Both the position numbers and the translations under genes were made by a program. Shown piece after piece: positions 20,809 through 48,042 of a stretch of DNA of 64,000 bases (positions are counted from its first letter, which is position 1; each line of letters opens with the position of its first letter). This DNA comes from Blastocatellia bacterium (GTDB lineage Bacteria > Acidobacteriota > Blastocatellia > UBA7656), in assembly GCA_963765495.1 (NCBI GenBank), contig CAVXWP010000009.1, forward strand, positions 1 to 64,000. Direction: 5' to 3'. Below the pieces are notes generated by a model. That model saw nothing but the letters and a program-made list of their open reading frames with translations, ran no database searches and was not told where the DNA came from.

Positions 20809-20894
20809 GCCTAACTGCTCATTCCAGCGGACGCGCTTGCCAACTTCTCGATTGCATCGGAGGCCACGGCGCGCCGCTGAACTCGTCGTTAGGC
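20809..20894 (+). repeat. attC site (IS110-A inserted at GTTAG^GC)
   Basis: Host-type attC; the R' box is regenerated because the IS starts with GC. Confidence 0.92.
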
Positions 20895-20959
20895 ATCCAT
20901 GAAGCAAGGCTTCTTCACGACGGATGAAAATGTCTGAGAGTTTATGTATCCTTCCTTCT

Positions 20960-21110
20960 GGTCATTGGCTGATAGGTCGTCGGGCCTTGGTGCCTTTAGC
21001 CCGGTCGTTAGTTTGACTTGGGGAGCCTTTTCAGGCATCACAACTTGTTGCTTCGAGCACGCATAGCAGTCTCTTTTGTTTTGAGGCTCCCCGCCAATGC
21101 CGAAAGGAGT
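20960..21110 (+). ncRNA. Putative bridge/seek RNA of IS110-A (approximate bounds)
   Basis: Guide-like segments GTCGTTAG (21004-11) and GAGCCT (21023-28) match the target; CATAGCAG (21062-69) and ATGCC (21097-101) match the element's own ends. Confidence 0.75.
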
Positions 21111-21116
21111 TCTATC

Positions 21117-22355
21117 ATGCAGATTCTTTACAACTCTTGCTGTGGTATTGATGTTCACGCTCGCACCGTTGTCGCCTGCCTCATCACTGACGGCAACAAA
21201 GAGGTTCGCACTTTCTCGACCATGACTGATGATTTGCTTGCCCTGCTCGACTGGCTCACTTCTCAAGGCTGCACTCACGTCGCTATTGAAAGTACTGGCG
21301 TTTACTGGAAGCCTGTTTTCAATATCCTCGAATCCTCCCTGGAGGTTATTTTGGTTAATGCCCGCCACGTCAAAGCTGTTCCTGGCAGAAAGACTGATGT
21401 TAAGGATTGTGAGTGGCTTGCTGACCTGCTTCGTCACGGTCTGCTTCGTCCCAGCTTTATCCCTCCTCCTCATATCCGTGAACTCAGGGATTTGACTCGC
21501 TACCGCCAGAGCCTTATCCGTGAGCAGACTGCTCTTGCCAATCGCATTCAGAAGTTGATTGAAAGCGCCAATATCAAGCTCGCTCAAGTCGCTAGTGATG
21601 CTTTGGGGGTTAGCGGCAGGCTGATGCTGAGAGCTTTGGCTGATGGTCAAACCGATGCTGACAAGATCAGCGACCTTGCTCGTCGGAGGATGAAGCGTAA
21701 GAAGGCTGACTTGAAGCGTGCTTTGCACGGTCGCCTCACTTCTGCCCAACGCTGGATTCTTAAAGAACTCCTCGATCAGTATGACTCGGTTGAATCCTCT
21801 ATTAAGAGGGTTGAAGAGAAGATCAGCCAGGAGGTCGAAACTTCCCCAGACCCTTTTGTTAAGCAAGCTGTTGAGCTTCTCGATTCTATTCCAGGAGTCG
21901 CAAAGACCTTAGCCCAGATCATTGTCTCTGAGATTGGAGTAGATATGAGCTGCTTCCCAACAGACAAGAATCTCTCAAGTTGGGCTTCGATCTGTCCCAG
22001 TAATAATCAATCGGCAGGAAAACGAAAGAGTGGAAGAACCCAAAAGGGCAATAGCTATCTAAAAGCAGCCCTTGTGCAGGCAGCCTGGGCAGCAACGCAT
22101 CAGAAGGATTGTTTCCTTGCAGCGAAGTACAAAAGGCTGGTCAAGAGAATGGGGAAGAAGAAGGCGCTGGTAGCAATAGCACATTCGATACTTGTGATTG
22201 TATATCACGTCTTAGAAGAGAGAGCCGGTTACAAAGAGTTGGGAGTAGATTATCTGGACAAAAGGAATGTAGAGAAGCAGCGGCGAAGATTAATCCGACA
22301 GCTTGAGGGGACGGGCTTGAGAGTAACTGTTGAAGAGGTCGAGCAAGCTGCCTGA
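21117..22355 (+). CDS. IS110 recombinase/transposase
   Basis: CCGIDVH, AIESTGVYW, KTDVKD and SIPGV...SAGK motifs. Confidence 0.95.
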   Translation: MQILYNSCCGIDVHARTVVACLITDGNKEVRTFSTMTDDLLALLDWLTSQGCTHVAIESTGVYWKPVFNILESSLEVILVNARHVKAVPGRKTDVKDCEWLADLLRHGLLRPSFIPPPHIRELRDLTRYRQSLIREQTALANRIQKLIESANIKLAQVASDALGVSGRLMLRALADGQTDADKISDLARRRMKRKKADLKRALHGRLTSAQRWILKELLDQYDSVESSIKRVEEKISQEVETSPDPFVKQAVELLDSIPGVAKTLAQIIVSEIGVDMSCFPTDKNLSSWASICPSNNQSAGKRKSGRTQKGNSYLKAALVQAAWAATHQKDCFLAAKYKRLVKRMGKKKALVAIAHSILVIVYHVLEERAGYKELGVDYLDKRNVEKQRRRLIRQLEGTGLRVTVEEVEQAA

Positions 22356-22457
22356 TCAACACCTACTCTTATTTTCATAGCAGGCTCTCGCTTTCGCAAT
22401 GATATAACTTGCCTTGATAAAAACTTCTTCCCCTATCATAATGCTGTTGAGGTCATT

Positions 22458-30082: not shown

Positions 30083-30167
30083 GCCTAACTGCTCATTCCA
30101 GCGGACGCGCATTCCAACGATTCATTATCCCTTTGCAACCAGCGCGCCGCTGAATTCGTCGTTAGGC
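30083..30167 (+). repeat. attC site (start of the IS110 stack)
   Basis: Host-type attC consensus. Confidence 0.92.
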
Positions 30168-30254
30168 ATCCATGAAGCAAGGCTTCTTCACATCGGATGA
30201 AAATAAGACACCCCGCTAATGAATTCAACAACTTAGCTCTTATTTTCATAGCAG
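30166..30254 (+). mobile_element. 89-bp ends-only IS110 mini-element with type A ends
   Basis: Left end GCATCCATGAAGCAAGGCTTCTTCAC and right end CTCTTATTTTCATAGCAG match IS110-A. Confidence 0.85.
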
Positions 30255-30565
30255 TTCATCATGAGCCTGCGGCTCACCTTCGAATGATGAAAATGTGTGA
30301 GAGCCATGATAGAATTTTGTATGTCGGTATGAAGGTCGAACGGTCCTTGGTGCTTCGAGCCTGTATAGCAGTTTGACCTGGGCATATTTCTGGTACCCCG
30401 AATTGTTGCCTTTGAGCACGTAGAGCAGACTCATGCTTATTAACCAATGCCCTACCGACAACCAGTTTGATGAAGCTGTGCAGAAGTAATATCGCACAGG
30501 CTCGGAGTTGTTTGTCTTCATCTACTCGTTATCAACATTTAGCACCCCTTTTATTTTCAGAGCAG
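30255..30565 (+). mobile_element. 311-bp non-autonomous IS110 element type B (bridge-RNA-like region, no recombinase)
   Basis: Four near-identical copies in the window; IS110-type ends; scaffold homologous to the non-coding ends of types A and C. Confidence 0.85.
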
Positions 30566-32055
30566 CCCGTCATGAAGCGAGGCTTCGCCACGAATGATGA
30601 AAATATGGGCGAGTTCGACTAAACTCTCTGTGGTCAGCGGCGTCAGATAAGGTCGTACAGCCTTGGTGCCTCAAGCCCGAATAGCAGCCTGACCTGAGAG
30701 CCTTTCTGGCACCACCAACTGTTGCTTCGAGCACGCATAGTAGACTCTTCATTAACAAGGCTCTCACGCCCTGGCCAGAAAGAGGTAGCTATGGAGATCA
30801 TCTATTCTTGTTGTTGCGGCCTCGATGTTCACGCCAAGACTGTTGTCGCTTGCCTCATTAAGCACGGCAAGAAAGAAGTCCGCACTTTCTCTACTATGAC
30901 CGATGACTTACTTCGTCTTTCGGATTGGCTCATAGCCGAAGGCTGCACGATTGCTGCAATAGAAAGCACGGGTGTTTACTGGAAGCCTGTCTTCAACATC
31001 CTTGAAGGCAACGTAGAAGTCTTGCTTGTCAATGCCCGCCACTACAAAGGTATTCCAGGCCGTAAGACCGATGTAAAAGATTGCGAATGGTTGGCCGATT
31101 TGCTGCGCCACGGTCTGTTAAAGCCCAGCTTCATTCCTCCGCTTGAGATAAGGGAGTTGAGAGAGTTGACACGCTATCGTCAGCAGTTGGTTAAAGAGAA
31201 TGCGACTATTGCCAATCGCATACAGAAGTTGATCGAGAGTGCCAACATCAAGCTCGGACAAGTCGCCACCGACGTCTTGGGAGTCAGTGGCAGGCAGATG
31301 TTGCGAGCACTGGCAGCAGGTGAGCGCGATGCCGAGAAGTTGAGTGAGTTTGCTCGCCGACGTATGCGAAGCAAGCGTCCCCAACTCAAACGTGCTCTTG
31401 AAGGCCGACTGACGAAATCTCAACGCTTTGTGCTGGGCGAGTTACTGACCCGATATGAAGAAGTAGAAGTTGCCGTCAAACGAGTCGAGCAACAGATTGA
31501 CGAGGAGGTGGGAGAGAGCGCCGACCCTTTTGTCTCTAAAGCCGTAGAACTGCTACAAACAATACCAGGGATAGGAGAGAGAGTGGCAGAAACAATAGTC
31601 TCAGAGATCGGAGTGGATATGGATCGCTTTCCGACAGACAGCCATATTTCGAGTTGGGCAGGGATGTGTCCGGGAAATAACGAATCGGCAGGCAAGCGGC
31701 GTAGCGGGAAGACGACGAAAGGGAATACCTATGTGCGGGAGGCGCTGGTACAAGCGGCGTGGGCAGCGAGTCATACAAAGCAGACATATCTGTCAGCGCA
31801 GTATAGAAGGCTAGCGAAGCGGCTGGGGAAGAAGAAGGCATTGGTGGCAGTCGGCCACACACTTTTGGTAATTGTTTATCATGTGATCGAACGACAGATG
31901 AGTTATAAAGAGTTGGGAGGAGATTACCTTGACAAACAGAATGTAGAGAGGCAAAGGAAGCGATTGATTGATCGGCTCGAAGCAACGGGATTGAAAGTCA
32001 CTGTTGAAGAGGTTCAACCTGCTGCGTGAGCCACATCCGGACATTTTCATAGTAG
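30566..32055 (+). mobile_element. IS110-family element type C
   Basis: Ends CCCGTCATGAAGCG...ATGAAAAT / ATTTTCATAGTAG; AG core at both junctions. Confidence 0.9.
30791..32029 (+). CDS. IS110 recombinase (paralog of the type A enzyme)
   Basis: CCGLDVH, AIESTGVYW, KTDVKD and TIPGI...SAGK motifs. Confidence 0.95.
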   Translation: MEIIYSCCCGLDVHAKTVVACLIKHGKKEVRTFSTMTDDLLRLSDWLIAEGCTIAAIESTGVYWKPVFNILEGNVEVLLVNARHYKGIPGRKTDVKDCEWLADLLRHGLLKPSFIPPLEIRELRELTRYRQQLVKENATIANRIQKLIESANIKLGQVATDVLGVSGRQMLRALAAGERDAEKLSEFARRRMRSKRPQLKRALEGRLTKSQRFVLGELLTRYEEVEVAVKRVEQQIDEEVGESADPFVSKAVELLQTIPGIGERVAETIVSEIGVDMDRFPTDSHISSWAGMCPGNNESAGKRRSGKTTKGNTYVREALVQAAWAASHTKQTYLSAQYRRLAKRLGKKKALVAVGHTLLVIVYHVIERQMSYKELGGDYLDKQNVERQRKRLIDRLEATGLKVTVEEVQPAA

Positions 32056-33484: not shown

Positions 33485-33629
33485 GTCATGACGCGAGGCG
33501 TCACCCTCGCTTATGAAAATGTGGTCGAGATGGGTTATGCTCTTTGAAGTCGTCGGCGTTGATCAGGTCGGGGCGTCTTGGTGCCAGCCAGCCCGTGCGT
33601 TAGCTTGACCCGAGAACCTTCCAGGCACC
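33483..33629 (+). mobile_element. Left end of IS110 type D, truncated by IS3
   Basis: CTGTCATGA...ATGAAAAT plus a target-loop scaffold with GCGTTAG and GAACCT. Confidence 0.75.
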
Positions 33630-33683
33630 TGGAGTTGACCTGGTTTAGTGGACAGGTCAACAATTTCCAGAAAGGAGTCCACG

Positions 33684-34887: not shown

Positions 34888-35691
34888 GGCCCCGATGCAG
34901 GATGAAAACGGGCAGATGGTGGAGCGAACTAGAGGAACTCCGCAGGGGGAGTAGTCAGCCCGCTGCTTGCGAATCTGTTCCTACACTACGCGTTTGATGT
35001 CTGGGTAAGTCGCAACCTGCCGACTGTGCCGTTCTGCCGCTACGCCGATGATGGACTGCTGCACTGCAAGACTCGGAGGCAGGCGGAGTATGTCATAAAA
35101 GTCGTGGGGAGAAGGTTTCAAGAGTGTGGGTTAGAACTGCACCCTGAGAAATCGAAGATCGTATACTGCAAAGACATCAACCGCAGAGGCGACTATGACA
35201 ATATCTCGTTTGACTTTCTCGGCTATACATTTCGGCCACGCTCATCAAAGGACAAATATGGGCGACGGTACGTCAACTTCTCGCCAGCCGTGAGCAATTC
35301 GGCAAAGAAAGCGATGCGGCAGGAAATAAGAGGCTGGCACCTACAGCTGAAGAACGACAAGAGGCTGGAGGATCTGTCGAGGATGTTTGATCCGATATTG
35401 AGAGGGTGGGCGAGCTATTACGGCAAGTTCTACAAAAGCGGCATGAGGGGGATTTGGAATCACTTTGATATGTATCTCACACGATGGGTAATGCGCAAAT
35501 ACAAGAGGCTGGCCGGGCATCGGCGGAGGGCAAGCAAGGAGTTAGGCCGAATCGCGCGGGATAAGCCGAATCTGTTTGTACATTGGCGGCAAAGGGAAAT
35601 GCGAGCGGTTGGATGATGGAGCCGAATGAGGGGAGACCTTCACGTTCGGTTCTGAGAGGGGCCAGGGGAGAGACTCCCCTGGTCTACTCAC
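34888..35691 (+). mobile_element. Group II intron 3, 3' half (RT and X domains, no HNH), 5'-truncated
   Basis: GTPQG (frameshift in a G-run), SPLLANLFLHY, RYADD and FDFLGY motifs; ORF ends at 35616; domain V GAGCCGAATGAGGGGAGACCTTCACGTTCGGTTC; domain VI ends ...CTACTCAC. Confidence 0.88.
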
Positions 35692-36170
35692 CCCTACATT
35701 CGGTTGCTAGCCAACTGGATGTATCTGGTGGCGATTATCGATTGGCATTCGCGTTATGTCGTGAGTTGGGAACTCGATGACAGCCTGGAAGTGGATTTCG
35801 TCCTCTTGGCCGTCGAGCGGGCCTTGCGCCAAGCGAAGCCGGAAATCTTTAACTCCGATCAAGGGAGCCAGTTCACGAGCCAGGCGTACATCTCGCTGGT
35901 CGAAGGAGCCGGGGTGCGAATCAGTATGGACTCGAAAGGGCGAGCCTTTGACAACATCTTCACCGAGAGATTATGGCGAACCGTCAAATATGAAGACGTC
36001 TATATAAAAGGTTACACGTCGCCGCGCGAAACGCGGGTTGGAATAGGCAGCTATCTGGAGTTCTATAATGACAGGCGCGTGCATCAAGCCTTGGCTTATC
36101 GAACGCCAGCCGAAATCCACTTCGGGCTTTGAATTGAACAAGAACCATGTTTATAGCCGACTCAAATGAA
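35692..36170 (+). pseudogene. IS3 orfB 3' exon, right end deleted
   Basis: (T)YIRLLANWMYLVAIIDW...NSDQGSQF...DNIFTERLWRTVKYE; same element as 2304-2533. Confidence 0.85.
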
Positions 36171-38961: not shown

Positions 38962-39272
38962 CTGCTCTGAAAATAAAAGGGGTGCTAAATGTTGATAACG
39001 AGTAGATGAAGACAAACAACTCCGAGCCTGTGCGATATTACTTCTGCACAGCTTCATCAAACTGGTTGTCGGTAGGGCATTGGTTAATAAGCATGAGTCT
39101 GCTCTACGTGCTCAAAGGCAACAATTCGGGGTACCAGAAATATGCCCAGGTCAAACTGCTATACAGGCTCGAAGCACCAAGGACCGTTCGACCTTCATAC
39201 CGACATACAAAATTCTATCATGGCTCTCACACATTTTCATCATTCGAAGGTGAGCCGCAGGCTCATGATGAA
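38962..39272 (-). mobile_element. IS110 non-autonomous type B, copy 2
   Basis: Same sequence as 30255-30565; abuts the right end of IS110-A copy 2. Confidence 0.87.
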
Positions 39273-41859
39273 CTGCTATGAAAATAAGAGTAGGTGTTGA
39301 TCAGGCAGCTTGCTCGACCTCTTCAACAGTTACTCTCAAGCCCGTCCCCTCAAGCTGTCGGATTAATCTTCGCCGCTGCTTCTCTACATTCCTTTTGTCC
39401 AGATAATCTACTCCCAACTCTTTGTAACCGGCTCTCTCTTCTAAGACGTGATATACAATCACAAGTATCGAATGTGCTATTGCTACCAGCGCCTTCTTCT
39501 TCCCCATTCTCTTGACCAGCCTTTTGTACTTCGCTGCAAGGAAACAATCCTTCTGATGCTTGCTGCCCAGGCTGCCTGCACAAGGGCTGCTTTTAGATAG
39601 CTATTGCCCTTTTGGGTTCTTCCACTCTTTCGTTTTCCTGCCGATTGATTATTACTGGGACAGATCGAAGCCCAACTTGAGAGATTCTTGTCTGTTGGGA
39701 AGCAGCTCATATCTACTCCAATCTCAGAGACAATGATCTGGGCTAAGGTCTTTGCGACTCCTGGAATAGAATCGAGAAGCTCAACAGCTTGCTTAACAAA
39801 AGGGTCTGGGGAAGTTTCGACCTCCTGGCTGATCTTCTCTTCAACCCTCTTAATAGAGGATTCAACCGAGTCATACTGATCGAGGAGTTCTTTAAGAATC
39901 CAGCGTTGGGCAGAAGTGAGGCGACCGTGCAAAGCACGCTTCAAGTCAGCCTTCTTACGCTTCATCCTCCGACGAGCAAGGTCGCTGATCTTGTCAGCAT
40001 CGGTTTGACCATCAGCCAAAGCTCTCAGCATCAGCCTGCCGCTAACCCCCAAAGCATCACTAGCGACTTGAGCGAGCTTGATATTGGCGCTTTCAATCAA
40101 CTTCTGAATGCGATTGGCAAGAGCAGTCTGCTCACGGATAAGGCTCTGGCGGTAGCGAGTCAAATCCCTGAGTTCACGGATATGAGGAGGAGGGATAAAG
40201 CTGGGACGAAGCAGACCGTGACGAAGCAGGTCAGCAAGCCACTCACAATCCTTAACATCAGTCTTTCTGCCAGGAACAGCTTTGACGTGGCGGGCATTAA
40301 CCAAAATAACCTCCAGGGAGGATTCGAGGATATTGAAAACAGGCTTCCAGTAAACGCCAGTACTTTCAATAGCGACGTGAGTGCAGCCTTGAGAAGTGAG
40401 CCAGTCGAGCAATAATAGAATTAGATAGTTTTTTGTTTGTTGTGTTGGTGTTTTTTTTTTGTTTTTTTGTGTGTTGGTGTGTTTGGTTTTTTTTGAAGTT
40501 GATATTTAGTTGTTGTTGTTTTATGGATAGGAGTAGAATATAGATGATTTTATGTTTAGATGGATGTTTATGATATATGTTGTGTGTAAAAAAATATTGG
40601 TTGATTTTTTATGTTGAGTGAGTAGGATTGATTTAAGTAAGGATTGTGAGATGTGTTGGTAGTAGGTTGAGTTATTTGATATTAGTGAGTAAGTTTTTAT
40701 TATAAGTTGTTTTAGTTATAGTGAGGAGATGTTATAAGTATGGATTGATGATATTATATAAAGTTATTATTTTACGTTTTGTGGTGTATTAGTGTTTGTT
40801 TAGTGGGAGTATTATGAAGTTTGTTGATATTTTGTGATGTTATATGTGTGAAGGGAATAAAAGTGATATATTTGGTTTTAATTTGAGTTGTTGTGATTTA
40901 GTGTATGTTTATATTGTATTTGTTGTGAGGTTTGTTTATTATGATTGTAAATTAAGTTTGGGGTATTGATATACTTATATCTGATTTGTGGTGTGTGGAT
41001 GTATTGGTAGTATTGTTGGATTGTTATTAGTGTTATATATTGAGTTGGGAATTGGATTAGAGTTTGGAGTATTTTTTCGTGATGGTAGTATTAGAATAGG
41101 TGTTTGTTAAAGTTTGTTTAGGAATTTGGAACTCTGATTAGGGGAGTTACTTCACTAGTTTGTAATATATATATCGACTGAAAATGGTTGGGTTGTAAAT
41201 CAGTATGGATGGTAAAGGTTGTGTTTTGGATAACATCTTTACGTAGTGTTTATGGAGAAGTATCAAGTATGAAGAGGTCTATCTGTATTCTTATGTTTCA
41301 CGAAGAGAAGCTCGACAAAACATTACTAGGTATATGTGATTCTATAATGAAGAGCGTCTACATCAGTCACTCGATTACTGGACACCGGTTGAAGTCGTAT
41401 TTCAGTTGTGAGAATGAGAAACATCAGCGAAACGATTCTATAATGAAAGGAGAAAAGTCCACTTTAGGCATAGGTAATTTTTTGTCTTGATTTTGTGGAC
41501 CACCTTAAGGGCAAGCAAATCATCAGTCATGGTCGAGAAAGTGCGAACCTCTTTGTTGCCGTCAGTGATGAGGCAGGCGACAACGGTGCGAGCGTGAACA
41601 TCAATACCACAGCAAGAGTTGTAAAGAATCTGCATGATAGAACTCCTTTCGGCATTGGCGGGGAGCCTCAAAACAAAAGAGACTGCTATGCGTGCTCGAA
41701 GCAACAAGTTGTGATGCCTGAAAAGGCTCCCCAAGTCAAACTAACGACCGGGCTAAAGGCACCAAGGCCCGACGACCTATCAGCCAATGACCAGAAGGAA
41801 GGATACATAAACTCTCAGACATTTTCATCCGTCGTGAAGAAGCCTTGCTTCATGGATGC
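39273..41859 (-). mobile_element. IS110 type A, copy 2, interrupted by an IS3 insertion
   Basis: Matches copy 1 apart from the 40412-41507 insert and a frameshift near 39557; inserted at an attC GTTAG^GC. Confidence 0.9.
40412..41507 (+). mobile_element. IS3-family element with a corrupted, C-depleted sequence
   Basis: Right end TTGTCTTGATTTTGTGGACCACCTTA; relics of the QVWGIDITY, NSDQG, SMDGKG..DNIF and KYEEVY coding motifs. Confidence 0.7.
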
Positions 41860-41942
41860 CTAACGACGAATTCAGCGGCGCGCTGGCGGCAAAGGGAGAA
41901 TGAGGCGGTGGAATGCGGGTCCGGTTGATGGACCAGTTAGGC
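41858..41942 (-). repeat. attC site (chimeric arms)
   Basis: Reverse complement reads GCCTAACTGGTCCATCAACCGGACCCGC...GCGCGCCGCTGAATTCGTCGTTAGGC. Confidence 0.88.
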
Positions 41943-43427: not shown

Positions 43428-44798
43428 GGCTTAGGCTGACACATCCAAACGCAGCAGGTATAGATATAGGTAGTGATTCACATTTCGTGGCCGTGCCGCC
43501 AGATAGAGCAGAAAATCTGTGAGAGAGTTCTCCTCATTCACCTGTGACCTCAACCGACTTGCAGATTGGTTGAGCGAGTGTGGGGTAGATACAGTAGCGA
43601 TGGAGTCAACAGGAGTCTACTGGATCGCGCTGTATGAGTTGCTGGAAAGTCGAGGATTTGAAGTGAAGTTAGTAGACGCACGACGAGTAAAGCATGTACC
43701 AGGACGAAAGACCGATGTATTGGACTGCCAGTGGTTGCAGGAATTGCATACATACGGACTATTAGAAGGAGCATTTCGACCACCCGACCAGATAATAGAG
43801 TTGCGAAGCTATGTGAGGCAGAGAATGATGTTGGTCAGATATGCAGCAAGCCACATACAGCACATGCAGAAGGCGCTGACACAGATGAACCTGAAACTGC
43901 ATAACGTGATAAGCGACATAACAGGGGCGACAGGGATGAGGATCATCAAAGCGATATTGGCAGGAGAGCGAGACGTGCAGGTGCTAGCGGCGAACCGAGA
44001 TGCGAGGTGTAAGAATTCACGGGAGGTAATAGCCAAGTCGTTGGAAGGCAATTATAGAGAAGAACTTTTGTTTGAGTTAAGACAAGGCGTAGAGTTGTAT
44101 GAGAGCTATCAGGAGAAGATAGCAGAATGCGACCGGCAGATAGAGCGGTAGTTGGGGAGGATGGCAAAGATGGGAGAAGTGGAAAACAAAGCCTTGCCGA
44201 AGGCCAGAAGAGCAAGCAAGGGAGAAGGAAATCAGCCGAGATTTGAGTTGAGGAAATATCTGTATGAGATGATGGGTGTAGACCTGACACAGATAGATGG
44301 GATAAGCGCATACACGGCCCTGGTAGTAGTCAGTGAAATAGGGACAGACATGAGCGCGTGGGAGAGTAGTAAGCAATTCGGGTCATGGCTATGTTTGTCA
44401 CCAGGAAGCAAGAAAAGCGGAGGCAAACAGCTATCAACAAAAAGCAAGCCGGGAGCGAACCGAGTAGCAAATCAGTTGAGGATGTCAGCCCAGGCATTGA
44501 GTAATTCACAGAGCGCATTAGGAGGATATTACCGAAGGATGAAGGCGCGATTAGGAGGACCAAAAGCGATAACAGCGACAGCCTACAAGCTGGCGAGGTT
44601 AATCTATAGCATGATGAAGAATGGAACAGAGTATGTAGATAGAGGGCAGGAAGCATATGAGGAGCAATATCGGGAAAGAGTGTTGAAAAATCTAAAGAGA
44701 AGAGCAAGACAGATGGGCTATGAACTGGTGAAGAGCGATCTACAGAAGGGTTTTCTCGTCCTGTAGAATCAATAGCTTACGGGGAAGTTTCTTAAGAA
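43428..44798 (+). pseudogene. IS110 type E, 3' part (frameshift near 43517, stop at 44149)
   Basis: HPNAAGIDIG, AMESTGVYW, KTDVLD and SGGK motifs; the N-terminus is found at 47972-48042. Confidence 0.85.
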
Positions 44799-45512: not shown

Positions 45513-45823
45513 TTGCTCGGAAAATAAAAGGGGTGCTAAATGTTGATAACGAGTAGATGAAGACAAACAACTCCGAGCCTGTGCGATATTACTTCTGCAC
45601 AGCTTCATCAAACTGGTTGTCGGTAGGGCATTGGTTAATAAGCATGAGTCTGCTCTACGTGCTCAAAGGCAACAATTCGGGGTACCAGAAATATGCCCAG
45701 GTCAAACTGCTATACAGGCTCGAAGCACCAAGGACCGTTCGACCTTCATACCGACATACAAAATTCTATCATGGCTCTCACACATTTTCATCATTCGAAG
45801 GTGAGCCGCAGGCTCATGATGAA
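45513..45823 (-). mobile_element. IS110 non-autonomous type B, copy 3
   Basis: 311-bp unit, in tandem with copy 4. Confidence 0.87.
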
Positions 45824-46133
45824 CTGCTCTGAAAATAAAAGGGGTGCTAAATGTTGATAACGAGTAGATGAAGACAAACAACTCCGAGCCTGTGCGATAT
45901 TACTTCTGCACAGCTTCATCAAACTGGTTGTCGGTAGGGCATTGGTTAATAAGCATGTGTCTGCTCTACGTGCTCAAAGGCAACAATTCGGGGTACCAGA
46001 AATATGCCCAGGTCAAACTGCTATACAGGCTCGAAGCACCAAGGACCGTTCGACCTTCATACCGACATCAAAATTCTATCATGGCTCTCACACATTTTCA
46101 TCATTCGAAGGTGAGCCGCAGGCTCATGATGAA
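45824..46133 (-). mobile_element. IS110 non-autonomous type B, copy 4
   Basis: 310-bp unit, head-to-tail with copy 3. Confidence 0.87.
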
Positions 46134-46220
46134 CTGCTCTGAAAATAATCGCCTAAGTTATTGATTCTACAAGAATCGCTTATTTTCGTCGTTCGTGGCG
46201 AAGCGACCCCTTCATGACGG
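46134..46220 (-). mobile_element. 87-bp ends-only IS110 mini-element
   Basis: Reverse complement CCGTCATGAAGG...ACGAAAATAAG...TTATTTTCAGAGCAG, directly after an attC GTTAG. Confidence 0.8.
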
Positions 46221-47423: not shown

Positions 47424-47632
47424 CTCAAGTTCTCACGTAGAAGACCGATAGTTTGAAGCGTTCTATTCTGGAGAGATTTATTGTTTCAGGAGTCGGGTCC
47501 TATGTAAAGCCATTTGCATCAAGCGGTCACCTGGAGCCGATGGCTCCGATTATCAAGCAACAATCTGAGAATGCTTAGGGCCGACATAATCTCATCTGGA
47601 CCTCCCTCGTCAAATGGCTGCCCAACCTGGCG

Positions 47633-47717
47633 ATCTAACGCCGGAGATAACCGGCCCGCTGTGGGCTCAGGGATAATGAAGGGTTGGAATGCGGGTCCGG
47701 TTGATGGACCAGTTAGG
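47633..47717 (-). repeat. attC site
   Basis: Type-2 host attC, reverse complement. Confidence 0.9.
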
Positions 47718-47741
47718 CCCTCAACCGGCTGCGCCGAATTG

Positions 47742-48042
47742 TCTGTGTAAGAAACTTTCTCTGTGCCGCCACACCTTGTTATCTTTCATTGCGCGTCCAG
47801 GCTGCCAAGACCGCTTGGCCATTGCTGCTTTTTGCCCGTCAGTTAGGCTGGTCCCGGAAGTTTGCGTCGGTCTCATTGGTGAAGCCCTGGCTCTCCCGTT
47901 TAGAAGAGTGTGCTTATTGACGACTTCCGCTCCTGGACGCGCAATTTCTTCTTCAAGTGGAGGTATTATCTATGAAGGCCAAATCGAAGTCAAAGCCCTC
48001 GAAGATGCGCTCGGTCAGATCAAAGCGAGCAAGGCTTAGGCT
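47742..48042 (+). mobile_element. IS110 type E, 5' part (structured non-coding end plus first codons)
   Basis: TAAGAAACTT pairs with the right-end AAGTTTCTTA; stem TTGCGCGTCCAGG / CCTGGACGCGCAA; ATG 47972 MKAKSKSK...RLRL continues at 43438. The left boundary is approximate. Confidence 0.75.

Follow-up and report, generated by a model that had tools for sequence, protein, structure and literature searches.

A 311-bp recombinase-less IS110-group element with a putative bridge RNA of its own, stacked behind the ends of other elements in an integron array

How can a DNA element of 311 bp that encodes no recombinase occur in several near-identical copies with exact boundaries, and whose guide RNA would direct its insertion? 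The question is raised by a stretch of 64,000 nt (hereafter, the window; positions 1 to 64,000 of contig CAVXWP010000009.1, assembly GCA_963765495.1) in the genome of a Blastocatellia bacterium, which spans 7.3 Mb on 17 contigs. Bridge RNAs are known in autonomous IS110 elements and as engineered trans-acting guides. The 311-bp element, designated here as B, occupies positions 38962-39272 (minus strand) in its focal copy, and two larger multi-copy elements of the IS110 family, A (1491 bp, five copies, one of which is disrupted) and C (1490 bp, three copies), reside in the same genome. From the sequence comparisons described below, we regard B as rather probably a non-autonomous IS110-group element that has its own bridge RNA and uses the recombinase of A or C in trans. 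The orientation of B follows that of a first-pass annotation of the window; the plus-strand copy at 30255-30565 served as the reference, and minus-strand copies are numbered in window coordinates.

Four full copies of B were present in the window and six in the whole genome. The first-pass annotation had listed the same four near-identical copies in the window, which proved to be 99-100% identical, and the two additional copies were located on other contigs. Four of the six were 100% identical over 311 bp and spread over three contigs, one was 99.7% identical over 310 bp and one 99.4% identical. Besides the focal copy, which includes the terminal AG core and abuts the right end of the disrupted A, they were the reference copy, the 99.4% identical copy at 45824-46133 (minus strand), the copy directly following it in tandem at 45513/4-45823 (minus strand), C16:239086-239396 and C2:561273-561583. 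The identity began and stopped at the same bases in all six copies, at AG cores, with unrelated flanks, and no longer homology was seen between the surroundings of the copies. The first-pass annotation had argued from the differing flanks against duplication of a larger segment, and the flanks indeed differed in the six copies. Every copy opened with TTCATCATGAGCC just after an AG and closed with ...TTATTTTCAGAGCAG, except for the second tandem copy, whose right end was mutated (...TTTTCCGAGCAA) at the last base so that the core reads AA. AG before the left end and AG closing the right end were thus found in five of the six copies. The same core dinucleotide at both junctions, the lack of terminal inverted repeats or of any longer target duplication, and one fixed orientation toward a specific target are the signature of IS110-group ends. 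The AG signature was also found in all four intact A copies and in the two full-ended C copies, the third C copy having lost its left tip. From the shared AG core onward, the left ends of A, B and C (GCATCCATGAAGC, TTCATCATGAGCC and CCCGTCATGAAGC, respectively) align base for base. The left end of B forms a hairpin, TTCATCAT..GAGCC..GGCTC..ATGATGAAAAT (39233-39272, minus strand), and shares homology with those of A and C; its right end is CCCCTTTTATTTTCAGAGC followed by the AG core (38962-38982, minus strand).

As the first-pass annotation had stated, B contains no recombinase open reading frame (ORF). The sole ORF, of 91 aa on the opposite strand, was rejected as a gene because stop codons interrupt it in a homologue of B from another genus (genome G002; 79% identical). 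B carries neither the DEDD/RuvC-like and Tnp-domain recombinase of an autonomous IS110 element (PF01548, PF02371 and NF033542) nor, as an integron gene cassette would, a terminal attC of its own, since no copy of the attC repeat families of the window lies within it. A full-length element with B ends, which the first-pass annotation had proposed to look for, was found neither in the 17 contigs of the home genome nor in 53 genomes of the family and 151 class-level genomes, in which a search with the RNA model described below returned no autonomous element with a B-type scaffold or B ends. A and C both encode recombinases of 412 aa, 68% identical to each other, with the Pfam domains PF01548 and PF02371; they scored 311 and 297 bits, respectively, against NCBIfam NF033542, 'IS110 family RNA-guided transposase' (cut-off 140).

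The window holds a chromosomal integron's cassette array, dense in insertion sequences (ISs) and group II introns. Its repeat families D2 and D3 show the form GCCTAAC...GTTAGGC, which we take to be the attC consensus and by which both were assigned as attC sites, and three integron integrases in the genome exceeded the TIGR02249 cut-off. B interrupts attC sites at GTT-AG. Its left neighbors were A in two copies, another B in one, mini-A and mini-2 in one each, and a bare attC in one, giving the arrays attC-mini-A-B-C, attC-mini-2-B-B, attC-A-B (twice, in the window and on contig C16) and, on contig C2, attC-B. In the first array, mini-A (30166-30254, plus strand), an 89-bp element that comprises no more than an A-like hairpin at the left and a right end, lies in attC directly left of the reference copy, and C (30566-32055, plus strand) begins directly after the right end of B. 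In the second, the tandem B copies directly follow mini-2 (46134-46220, minus strand), an 87-bp homologue of mini-A in attC with a C-like left end and a B-like right end; the two minis are the only such elements of 87-89 bp in the genome. The focal copy follows the A at 39273-41859 (minus strand), which is inserted in attC and disrupted by a unique 1096-bp AT-rich insertion, and the attC holding this A+B composite lies at 41860-41942 (minus strand). All four window copies of B were preceded by ...TTATTTTCATAGCAG or ...TTATTTTCAGAGCAG. The first-pass annotation had placed B 'always' after the right end of another element, which holds for four of four copies in the window and five of six in the genome; the exception is the C2 copy, where ..CTCGTTAG of attC is followed by B and then GCCCTC with no intervening element.

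The region between the ends of B was compared with the 5' regions of related elements. IS110 homologues were collected from 401 genomes of the same class, of which 29 (G000 included) gave matches at E<=1e-60; the 5' regions of 15 autonomous relatives from these were aligned with those of A and C, with B and with the G002 homologue, and a covariance model was built from the alignment. B aligned across the whole conserved 5' block and scored 109 bits, compared with 112 for A and 124 for C, in agreement with the earlier statement that B keeps the scaffold. In the home genome, the model matched three C, five A and six B copies along with one truncated remnant. The scaffold of B was closest to those of C (71% identical) and A (65%). 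Four helices covary across this IS110 subfamily and are kept in B. When 30 model matches (27 distinct) were re-aligned to the model, standard pairs were found in 89.0% of 447 pair cells versus 29.5-45.5% after the partners were slid by 1-3 columns, changes on both sides were seen in 10 of the 17 pairs, and the observed covariation score was reached by none of 500 shuffles, counts that rest on an alignment fitted to the model itself.

The predicted bridge-RNA-like core extends from the 5' strand of the closing helix P0, TGTCGGTA, to its 3' strand, TACCGACA (39067-39205, minus strand, as for all features of the focal copy below; 30322-30460 in the reference copy). P0 lies just outside the model, and the mean longest perfect complement between its strands was 6.96 for cognate (n=27) and 4.36 for non-cognate combinations (n=702). 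Helix P2 is formed by GGGCAT (39142-39147; 30380-85) and ATGCCC (39075-39080; 30447-52), strands whose counterparts pair in each of the 18 aligned sequences, with bases that vary widely among them; in B, P2 pairs one register off the columns of the model. RNAalifold on the plain MAFFT alignment returned only P1 and a small hairpin, and P2 and P0 were spotted by eye and then tested. Another candidate helix, GGUGCC/GGCACC, was dropped, being broken in several relatives without compensation and clashing with P1. The minimum-energy fold of B holds P0, P1, P2 and a 3' hairpin. A promoter-like site (ATGAAA, a 17-nt spacer and TG-TAGAAT; 39212-39240; 30287-30315) ends 7 nt before P0, and the same architecture (ATGAAA, 17 nt, TAnnnT) was readable in A, C and the G002 homologue. 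The 3' hairpin, AGCTGTGC-loop-GCACAGGCT (39025-39053; 30474-30502), occupies the place of the ribosome site and the tnp gene of the relatives. It may be a terminator; a terminator scan of B did not call it. Rfam returned no match to B at gathering thresholds, and hits at chance level only at E up to 10. The comparisons support the conclusion that B keeps the whole bridge-RNA-like module of the co-resident A and C elements.

The guides of this module were then read by two rules derived from the relatives. According to the donor rule, the eight bases after GAGCACG correspond to the right end of the element itself, which agreed at 8/8 bases in 13, 7/8 in six and 6/8 in one of 21 testable loci, with no agreement in the remaining one. 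According to the target rule, the 7-mer that ends in AG ahead of the 3' strand of P1, together with the next two bases, corresponds to the left flank plus the first two bases of the element; of 23 rows, 19 showed this agreement at the distance expected (10 at 9/9, seven at 8/9 and two at 7/9). The left donor guide of B, GTAGAGCAG (39099-39107; 30420-28), matches its own right end CAGAGCAG in the seven core-proximal bases, AGAGCAG in both, and compared with A, the guide and the right end of B carry the same T-to-G difference. The left target guide, TGTATAGCAG followed by TT (39154-39165; 30362-73), contains ATAGCAG, identical to the right end of A and mini-A, and the TT recurs as the opening dinucleotide of B itself. 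With its UU, this guide fits at 9/9 bases at three copies and at 8/9 at the two copies behind a B-type end; the 7-mer alone fits at 7/7 and 6/7, respectively, and in the AG core only at the C2 copy. The RNA of C has the same target 7-mer, ATAGCAG, but CC instead of TT and a donor guide fitting at 6/8, and the target guide of A differs from that of B. Among the RNAs of A, B and C, only that of B fits the left flank, the first two bases and the right end of B together, which favors guidance of B by its own RNA, a view that we hold at slightly better than even confidence.

The first-pass annotation had located four motifs correctly in the reference copy, ATAGCAG (30365-71), AGAGCAG (30422-28), GATGAA (30469-74) and GGCATAT (30381-87), and its assignment of the first two as left target and left donor guides agreed with the rules across about 20 relatives. 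The other two assignments failed. GGCATAT, read there as the right target guide, belongs to a covarying helix, of which it forms the 5' strand, with ATGCCC at 30447-52 as its partner. By the family rule, the putative right target guide lies between AGGTCG and TGGTGCC and ends in CT; in B it is AACGGTCCT (39180-39188; 30339-47), with a final CU that complements the AG core. The idea of relaxed right-side recognition was drawn from the wrong bases, those of a scaffold helix strand, and is not supported; AACGGTCCT matches two to three of the five flank bases. GATGAA, taken as the donor guide for the left end, lies 3' of P0, outside the RNA core, at the position of the ribosome-binding site in the relatives, and in the G002 homologue both this position and the left end have changed, leaving only a shifted 5-base complement. 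Across the family, the right target guide fitted the first five flank bases at 3.0/5 in 15 cognate pairs versus 1.28/5 in 150 non-cognate pairs; fits of 5/5 were found in three relatives, in two of them only after the guide was re-registered by eye.

Outside the home genome, B was found as a lineage with a scaffold more strongly conserved than its spacers. The G002 homologue has both ends intact; it shares 85% of the scaffold bases with B and 61% of those in the adjoining spacers, and its 3' hairpin retains the stem but has a different loop. At three positions, the stretch corresponding to the right target guide departs from that of B, and it predicts four of the five bases of the right flank of the homologue itself. 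In an unrelated sediment study, a 291-base contig (X2) was 95% identical to B, with none of the 14 differences falling within the 123-base scaffold (P about 4e-4 if the differences were evenly distributed). On a second contig of that study (X3), the left end of B is preceded by an A-type (mini-type) right end, beyond which lies a third, diverged mini-like sequence. Further RNA-model hits were rejected as truncated remnants: L170-L173 and L197, which are without tnp, have no right end, and L174 and L175 retain only the first ~30-36 codons of tnp. In the collection genome_contigs, a scan with a loose pattern returned at least 120 stretches, and among the matches listed only L084 was weakly similar to B; two B-specific patterns had no match in metagenome_contigs and one had none in viral_contigs. 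A separate locus, L132 (G063:C205:135-241), matched only the 3' third of B, at 75%, comprising the hairpin and a right-end-like tail (...AAAAGCAG); its upstream neighbor is an ordinary gene, and there is no recombinase in the vicinity.

Evidence on mobility came from a 368-base contig of a sequencing run (X1) that may derive from the source sample. In this contig, the unique flank up to 38963 is joined to 23 bases identical to 41862-41884. The junction is a precise empty attC joined at the AG core, without the 2898 bp of disrupted A plus B, and the contig records either an insertion polymorphism or the precise excision of the composite extending from the left end of A to the right end of B. 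The junction of the B-B tandem has the same sequence as the expected circle junction, and the two cannot be separated in contigs.

Several observations weigh against an element that is guided by its own RNA. The right target guide AACGGTCCT predicts GACCG, and the flanks GCCCT, GCTCA, GTCCT and GCCCA fit it at 3, 2, 3 and 3 of 5 bases, while the same four flanks fit the guide of A (GCCCG) at least as well, at 4, 3, 3 and 4 of 5; the left ends of C and B, where these form the right flank, fit the guide of B at 1/5 each. A right donor guide was not found at a consistent place, in B or in the family, when complements of the core plus left end were searched for in the 5' regions. Candidates for it were rejected: 'AATGCC' in A is the 3' strand of P0, and ACUCAUG in B and CUUCAU in C, complementary to subterminal bases of the left end, fail in other relatives. 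The C2 copy lies at a bare attC end, where the fit to the target guide of B is confined to the AG core and which is the site that the RNA of A would choose (GTCGTTAG), although this copy may be the remainder after precise loss of a left neighbor. The empty site lost A and B together, so that it speaks for mobility of the composite, not of B alone. In G002, the target guide plus two bases fits the left flank at 6/9, and a recombinase similar to those of A and C was not found in that genome at E<=1e-60. The predicted fold of B is no more stable than that of shuffled sequence (z = -0.27), and the pair counts carry the dependence on the model mentioned above.

The bare-attC copy on C2, the poor fit of the right target guide and the absence of the composite from the empty site favor co-mobilization by the RNA of A, and hence the explanation that competes best with guidance by B's own RNA. 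In this explanation B would be a passive hitchhiker, like the MITEPpu9/ssr9 module of ISPpu9, moved alone or as A+B by the recombinase of A (or C) together with the RNA of A (or C); the RNA of B would guide nothing, and its guide matches would be inherited from a C-like ancestor. The C2 copy stands exactly where the target guide of A points, the right flanks fit the guide of A no worse than that of B, the two A+B composites have an identical junction at two attC sites, and the sole polymorphism seen removes A+B as a unit. Moreover, the donor guide of A fits the right end of B at 7/8, the target 7-mer is common to C and B, and, in the available part of the ISPpu9 report (PMC12288879), circles arise from all combinations of ends and ssr9 is dispensable for transposition. 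A passive element, however, needs its ends only, yet the scaffold is the best-kept part of B, both in X2 and in G002. The T-to-G difference shared by the donor guide and right end of B is likewise not expected of a hitchhiker, nor is a right-target-guide stretch in G002 that has diverged from that of B and predicts most of its own flank. Finally, B adjoins at least four different partners bearing a right end (A, mini-A, mini-2 and the X3 variant), so that repeated insertion at such ends is required. We therefore consider passive hitchhiking rather unlikely, though it deserves to be taken seriously.

A role of the B RNA as a regulator or decoy appears improbable. Here the RNA would titrate the recombinase, or pair with an antisense RNA of the 5' region of A or C as proposed for Ssr9 and Asr9, and the spread of B would be incidental. 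A protein-binding decoy would equally keep the scaffold, and the resemblance of this scaffold to those of C and A is in line with such a role; in the available text of PMC8450116, Ssr9 is complementary to Asr9, an antisense RNA of the tnp 5'-untranslated region (5'-UTR), and is proposed to counteract it. A decoy would have no need of guides matched to its own right end and its own insertion sites, nor of intact ends in two genera, and a promoter scan showed one weak minus-strand site inside B. That the copies are dead relics multiplied by segmental duplication or rearrangement of IS-rich integron arrays is very hard to believe: the region is dense in IS elements and repeats, the two A+B junctions are identical and truncated recombinase-less scaffold remnants are common in relatives, but the identity stops exactly at AG cores on both sides in all six copies with unrelated flanks, copies on three contigs are 100% identical, a precise empty site exists, and the remnants in relatives are single-copy without a right end while B is multi-copy with both ends.

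Returning to the reading that we prefer, B as an element with its own bridge RNA, we propose the following course of events. B would have arisen by internal deletion of an A/C-like IS that left the left-end hairpin, the native promoter, a complete bridge-RNA gene of roughly 140 nt and the right end, with a hairpin replacing the former recombinase gene. The B RNA, driven by its own promoter, would be loaded onto the 412-aa IS110-family recombinase supplied by A or C in the same genome. The donor loop would read the right end of B (AGAGC-AG), allowing B to excise and re-integrate at the AG core, and the target loop (left guide AUAGCAG, then UU) would direct integration right after A-type right ends in attC sites. 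Each insertion would recreate a junction of right end and flank, so that elements stack head-to-tail, which would account for the stacks attC-mini-B-C, attC-mini-B-B and attC-A-B. Neighboring left and right ends should also be usable together, and A+B could thus move or excise as one unit. Transcription of B, its binding by the recombinase, the use of its RNA rather than that of A or C, and the order of the insertions are steps that we infer. Individual steps of the mechanism are supported because, as far as the available texts go, RNA and transposase of IS110/IS1111 elements work in trans (PMC11187229, PMC11208160), ends alone suffice for the movement of an element that receives transposase and RNA in trans (PMC11187229), and MITEPpu9 forms circles (PMC12288879).

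More tentatively, and with somewhat less than even confidence, B may represent a 'guide-only' lineage, a natural trans-acting bridge RNA with ends of its own that redirects the IS110 recombinase of a resident element to insert it at right ends of other members of the group. B would hence be a hyperparasite of insertion sequences, stacking in attC sites and having stayed recombinase-less across at least two genera. If this is true, a guide itself can be a unit of selection, and recombinases are shared among competing RNAs in one cell. Target guides could then come to aim at other elements' ends, which would be a neutral 'safe harbour' copied whenever the host element multiplies. The system would also offer natural test cases of co-variation between guides and ends, with an AG core and an architecture unlike that of IS621, and enlarges the set of insertion sequences eroding integron attC sites by an IS110-type lineage with the RNA upstream.

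The partner elements and other features of the array are described here for completeness. A targets attC sites and is of the IS110 type, its RNA being encoded upstream of tnp. An intact copy with the 412-aa recombinase gene lies in attC at 20893-22383 (plus strand) with no B behind it, and further copies are at C2:11867-13357, C2:22764-21274 and C16:240887-239397. All four intact copies are preceded by ..GTTAG of an attC site; their right end, ...CATAGCAG, is followed by GC.. in three and by B in the fourth, B being absent from this junction in three of the five A copies. The two bases after the left target guide of A (TT) mismatch its own left end (GC) and match that of B. The 1096-bp insert in the recombinase gene of the disrupted A (40412-41507, minus strand) is single-copy, has 30% GC versus 54% for the genome, contains no long ORF and carries a low-complexity tail rich in A; foreign DNA, a retroelement-like insert and an assembly artefact are all conceivable origins. 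Further C copies lie at C1:174826-176243 and C2:3842-5260; one C copy directly follows the right end of B and the other two follow ..CCACAG and ..CAACAG, and the C copy on C2 lacks the first ~17 bases of the left end.

At 33488-33637 (plus strand), a fourth IS110-group element is inserted in attC (..GTCGTTAG followed by CTGTCATGACGCG); the flank agrees with its left target guide, GTGCGTTAG-CT, and an IS3-family element truncates it at ~33637. A weak RNA-model match (24.9 bits) at 47808-47955 (plus strand), beside the attC at 47631-47718, has at the guide position a 9-mer equal to the attC end ..CAGTTAG followed by GC, and is probably another decayed IS110-group left end. A third IS110-family recombinase gene, distantly related to those of A and C (34% identity), spans 43510-44745 (plus strand) and is split by a frameshift into ORFs at 43519-44151 and 44152-44766. 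Group II introns are known to enter attC sites; three matches to their domains V-VI were found at 1131-1231, 2227-2303 and 35617-35692, along with a reverse-transcriptase/maturase ORF at 35026-35616. Tandem runs of the heptamer GGGATGA ending in GATGAAAAG, in facing pairs ~60-80 bp apart at many loci genome-wide (for example C1:421688, C9:82775 and C16:352334), were seen as noise in a motif scan and look like an abundant unrelated repeat family.

How does B compare with known systems? Elements that target the ends of other mobile elements have a parallel in IS4321 and IS5075 of the IS1111 family, which are said to target the terminal repeats of Tn21-family transposons; to judge from the titles of those reports, the likeness lies in the use of another mobile element's end, whereas these elements are autonomous and their target is of a different type. 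The IS1111-attC group was reportedly treated by Tetu and Holmes in 2008 and by Post and Hall in 2009. This group (ISKpn4 and ISPst6), described together with its seekRNA in the available part of PMC11187229, has a DEDD transposase and inserts, guided by RNA, at one attC end in one orientation. Its RNA lies downstream of tnp and its inverted repeats are subterminal, in contrast to the upstream, IS110-type position of the RNA in A, B and C, and no natural RNA-only derivative is described in that part of the source.

The bridge RNA of IS621 and other IS110 elements, in the portions of PMC11208160 and PMC11208158 available, is encoded upstream of the recombinase gene and has target and donor loops, as in the subfamily here. 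In both systems, the left guides read in the top-strand sense including the core. The right target guide of the IS621-type RNA complements the core and right flank, and the putative right target guide here would do likewise. The IS621-type RNA works in trans, and in B no recombinase gene lies behind the RNA. The core is AG in B and CT in IS621. Unlike IS621 as presented in those portions, the right target guide in our reading lies 5' of the left target guide within P1 and P0 encloses both loops; no right donor guide was identified here, and Rfam gave no match.

The closest counterpart is MITEPpu9, the ssr9 module of ISPpu9 in Pseudomonas putida KT2440, and the ISPpu9 paper (PMC12288879) was the only primary study of an IS110 element returned, alongside reviews and one unrelated preprint, by a literature search for IS110 bridge RNAs with non-autonomous, miniature inverted-repeat transposable element (MITE) or orphan forms. 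In its available text, variant copies of the ISPpu9 end boxes, with an AG core, enclose MITEPpu9, which is found downstream of the IS, by itself or in tandem, and which gives rise to transposase-dependent circles either alone or with the IS. B likewise is short and transposase-less, lies between variants of the left and right boxes of co-resident IS110-group elements with an AG core at both junctions, and stands directly behind A (twice) or a mini (twice), alone in attC (once) or in tandem (once). A remnant in P. putida with left and right boxes 69 bp apart (PMC12288879) is reminiscent of mini-A and mini-2. MITEPpu9 produces a small RNA from its own promoter and is read there as a selfish module using the IS transposase; B has a promoter-like site from which an RNA would be made. 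The targets differ, being REP (repetitive extragenic palindromic) sequences for MITEPpu9 and integron attC sites and element ends for B, and the circles of MITEPpu9 are experimental, whereas B is known here from sequence and was compared with MITEPpu9 by description. In the text available of PMC12288879 and PMC8450116, Ssr9 is presented as a regulator with complementarity to an antisense RNA and is not called a bridge RNA, while the module of B comprises the entire bridge-RNA scaffold of its family, with a donor guide for its own end and a target guide for the ends of other elements. The MITEPpu9/ssr9 precedent lowers the novelty of B; what appears to be new is a MITE-like IS110 module that consists of a complete bridge-RNA gene with its own guides aimed at element ends in attC. 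Ssr9 may resemble the tnp 5'-UTR, and so be the same kind of thing as B, because it complements the antisense RNA of that 5'-UTR in the available part of PMC8450116. The precedent suggests that the phenomenon may be general, and Ssr9 may merit re-examination as a bridge-RNA derivative.

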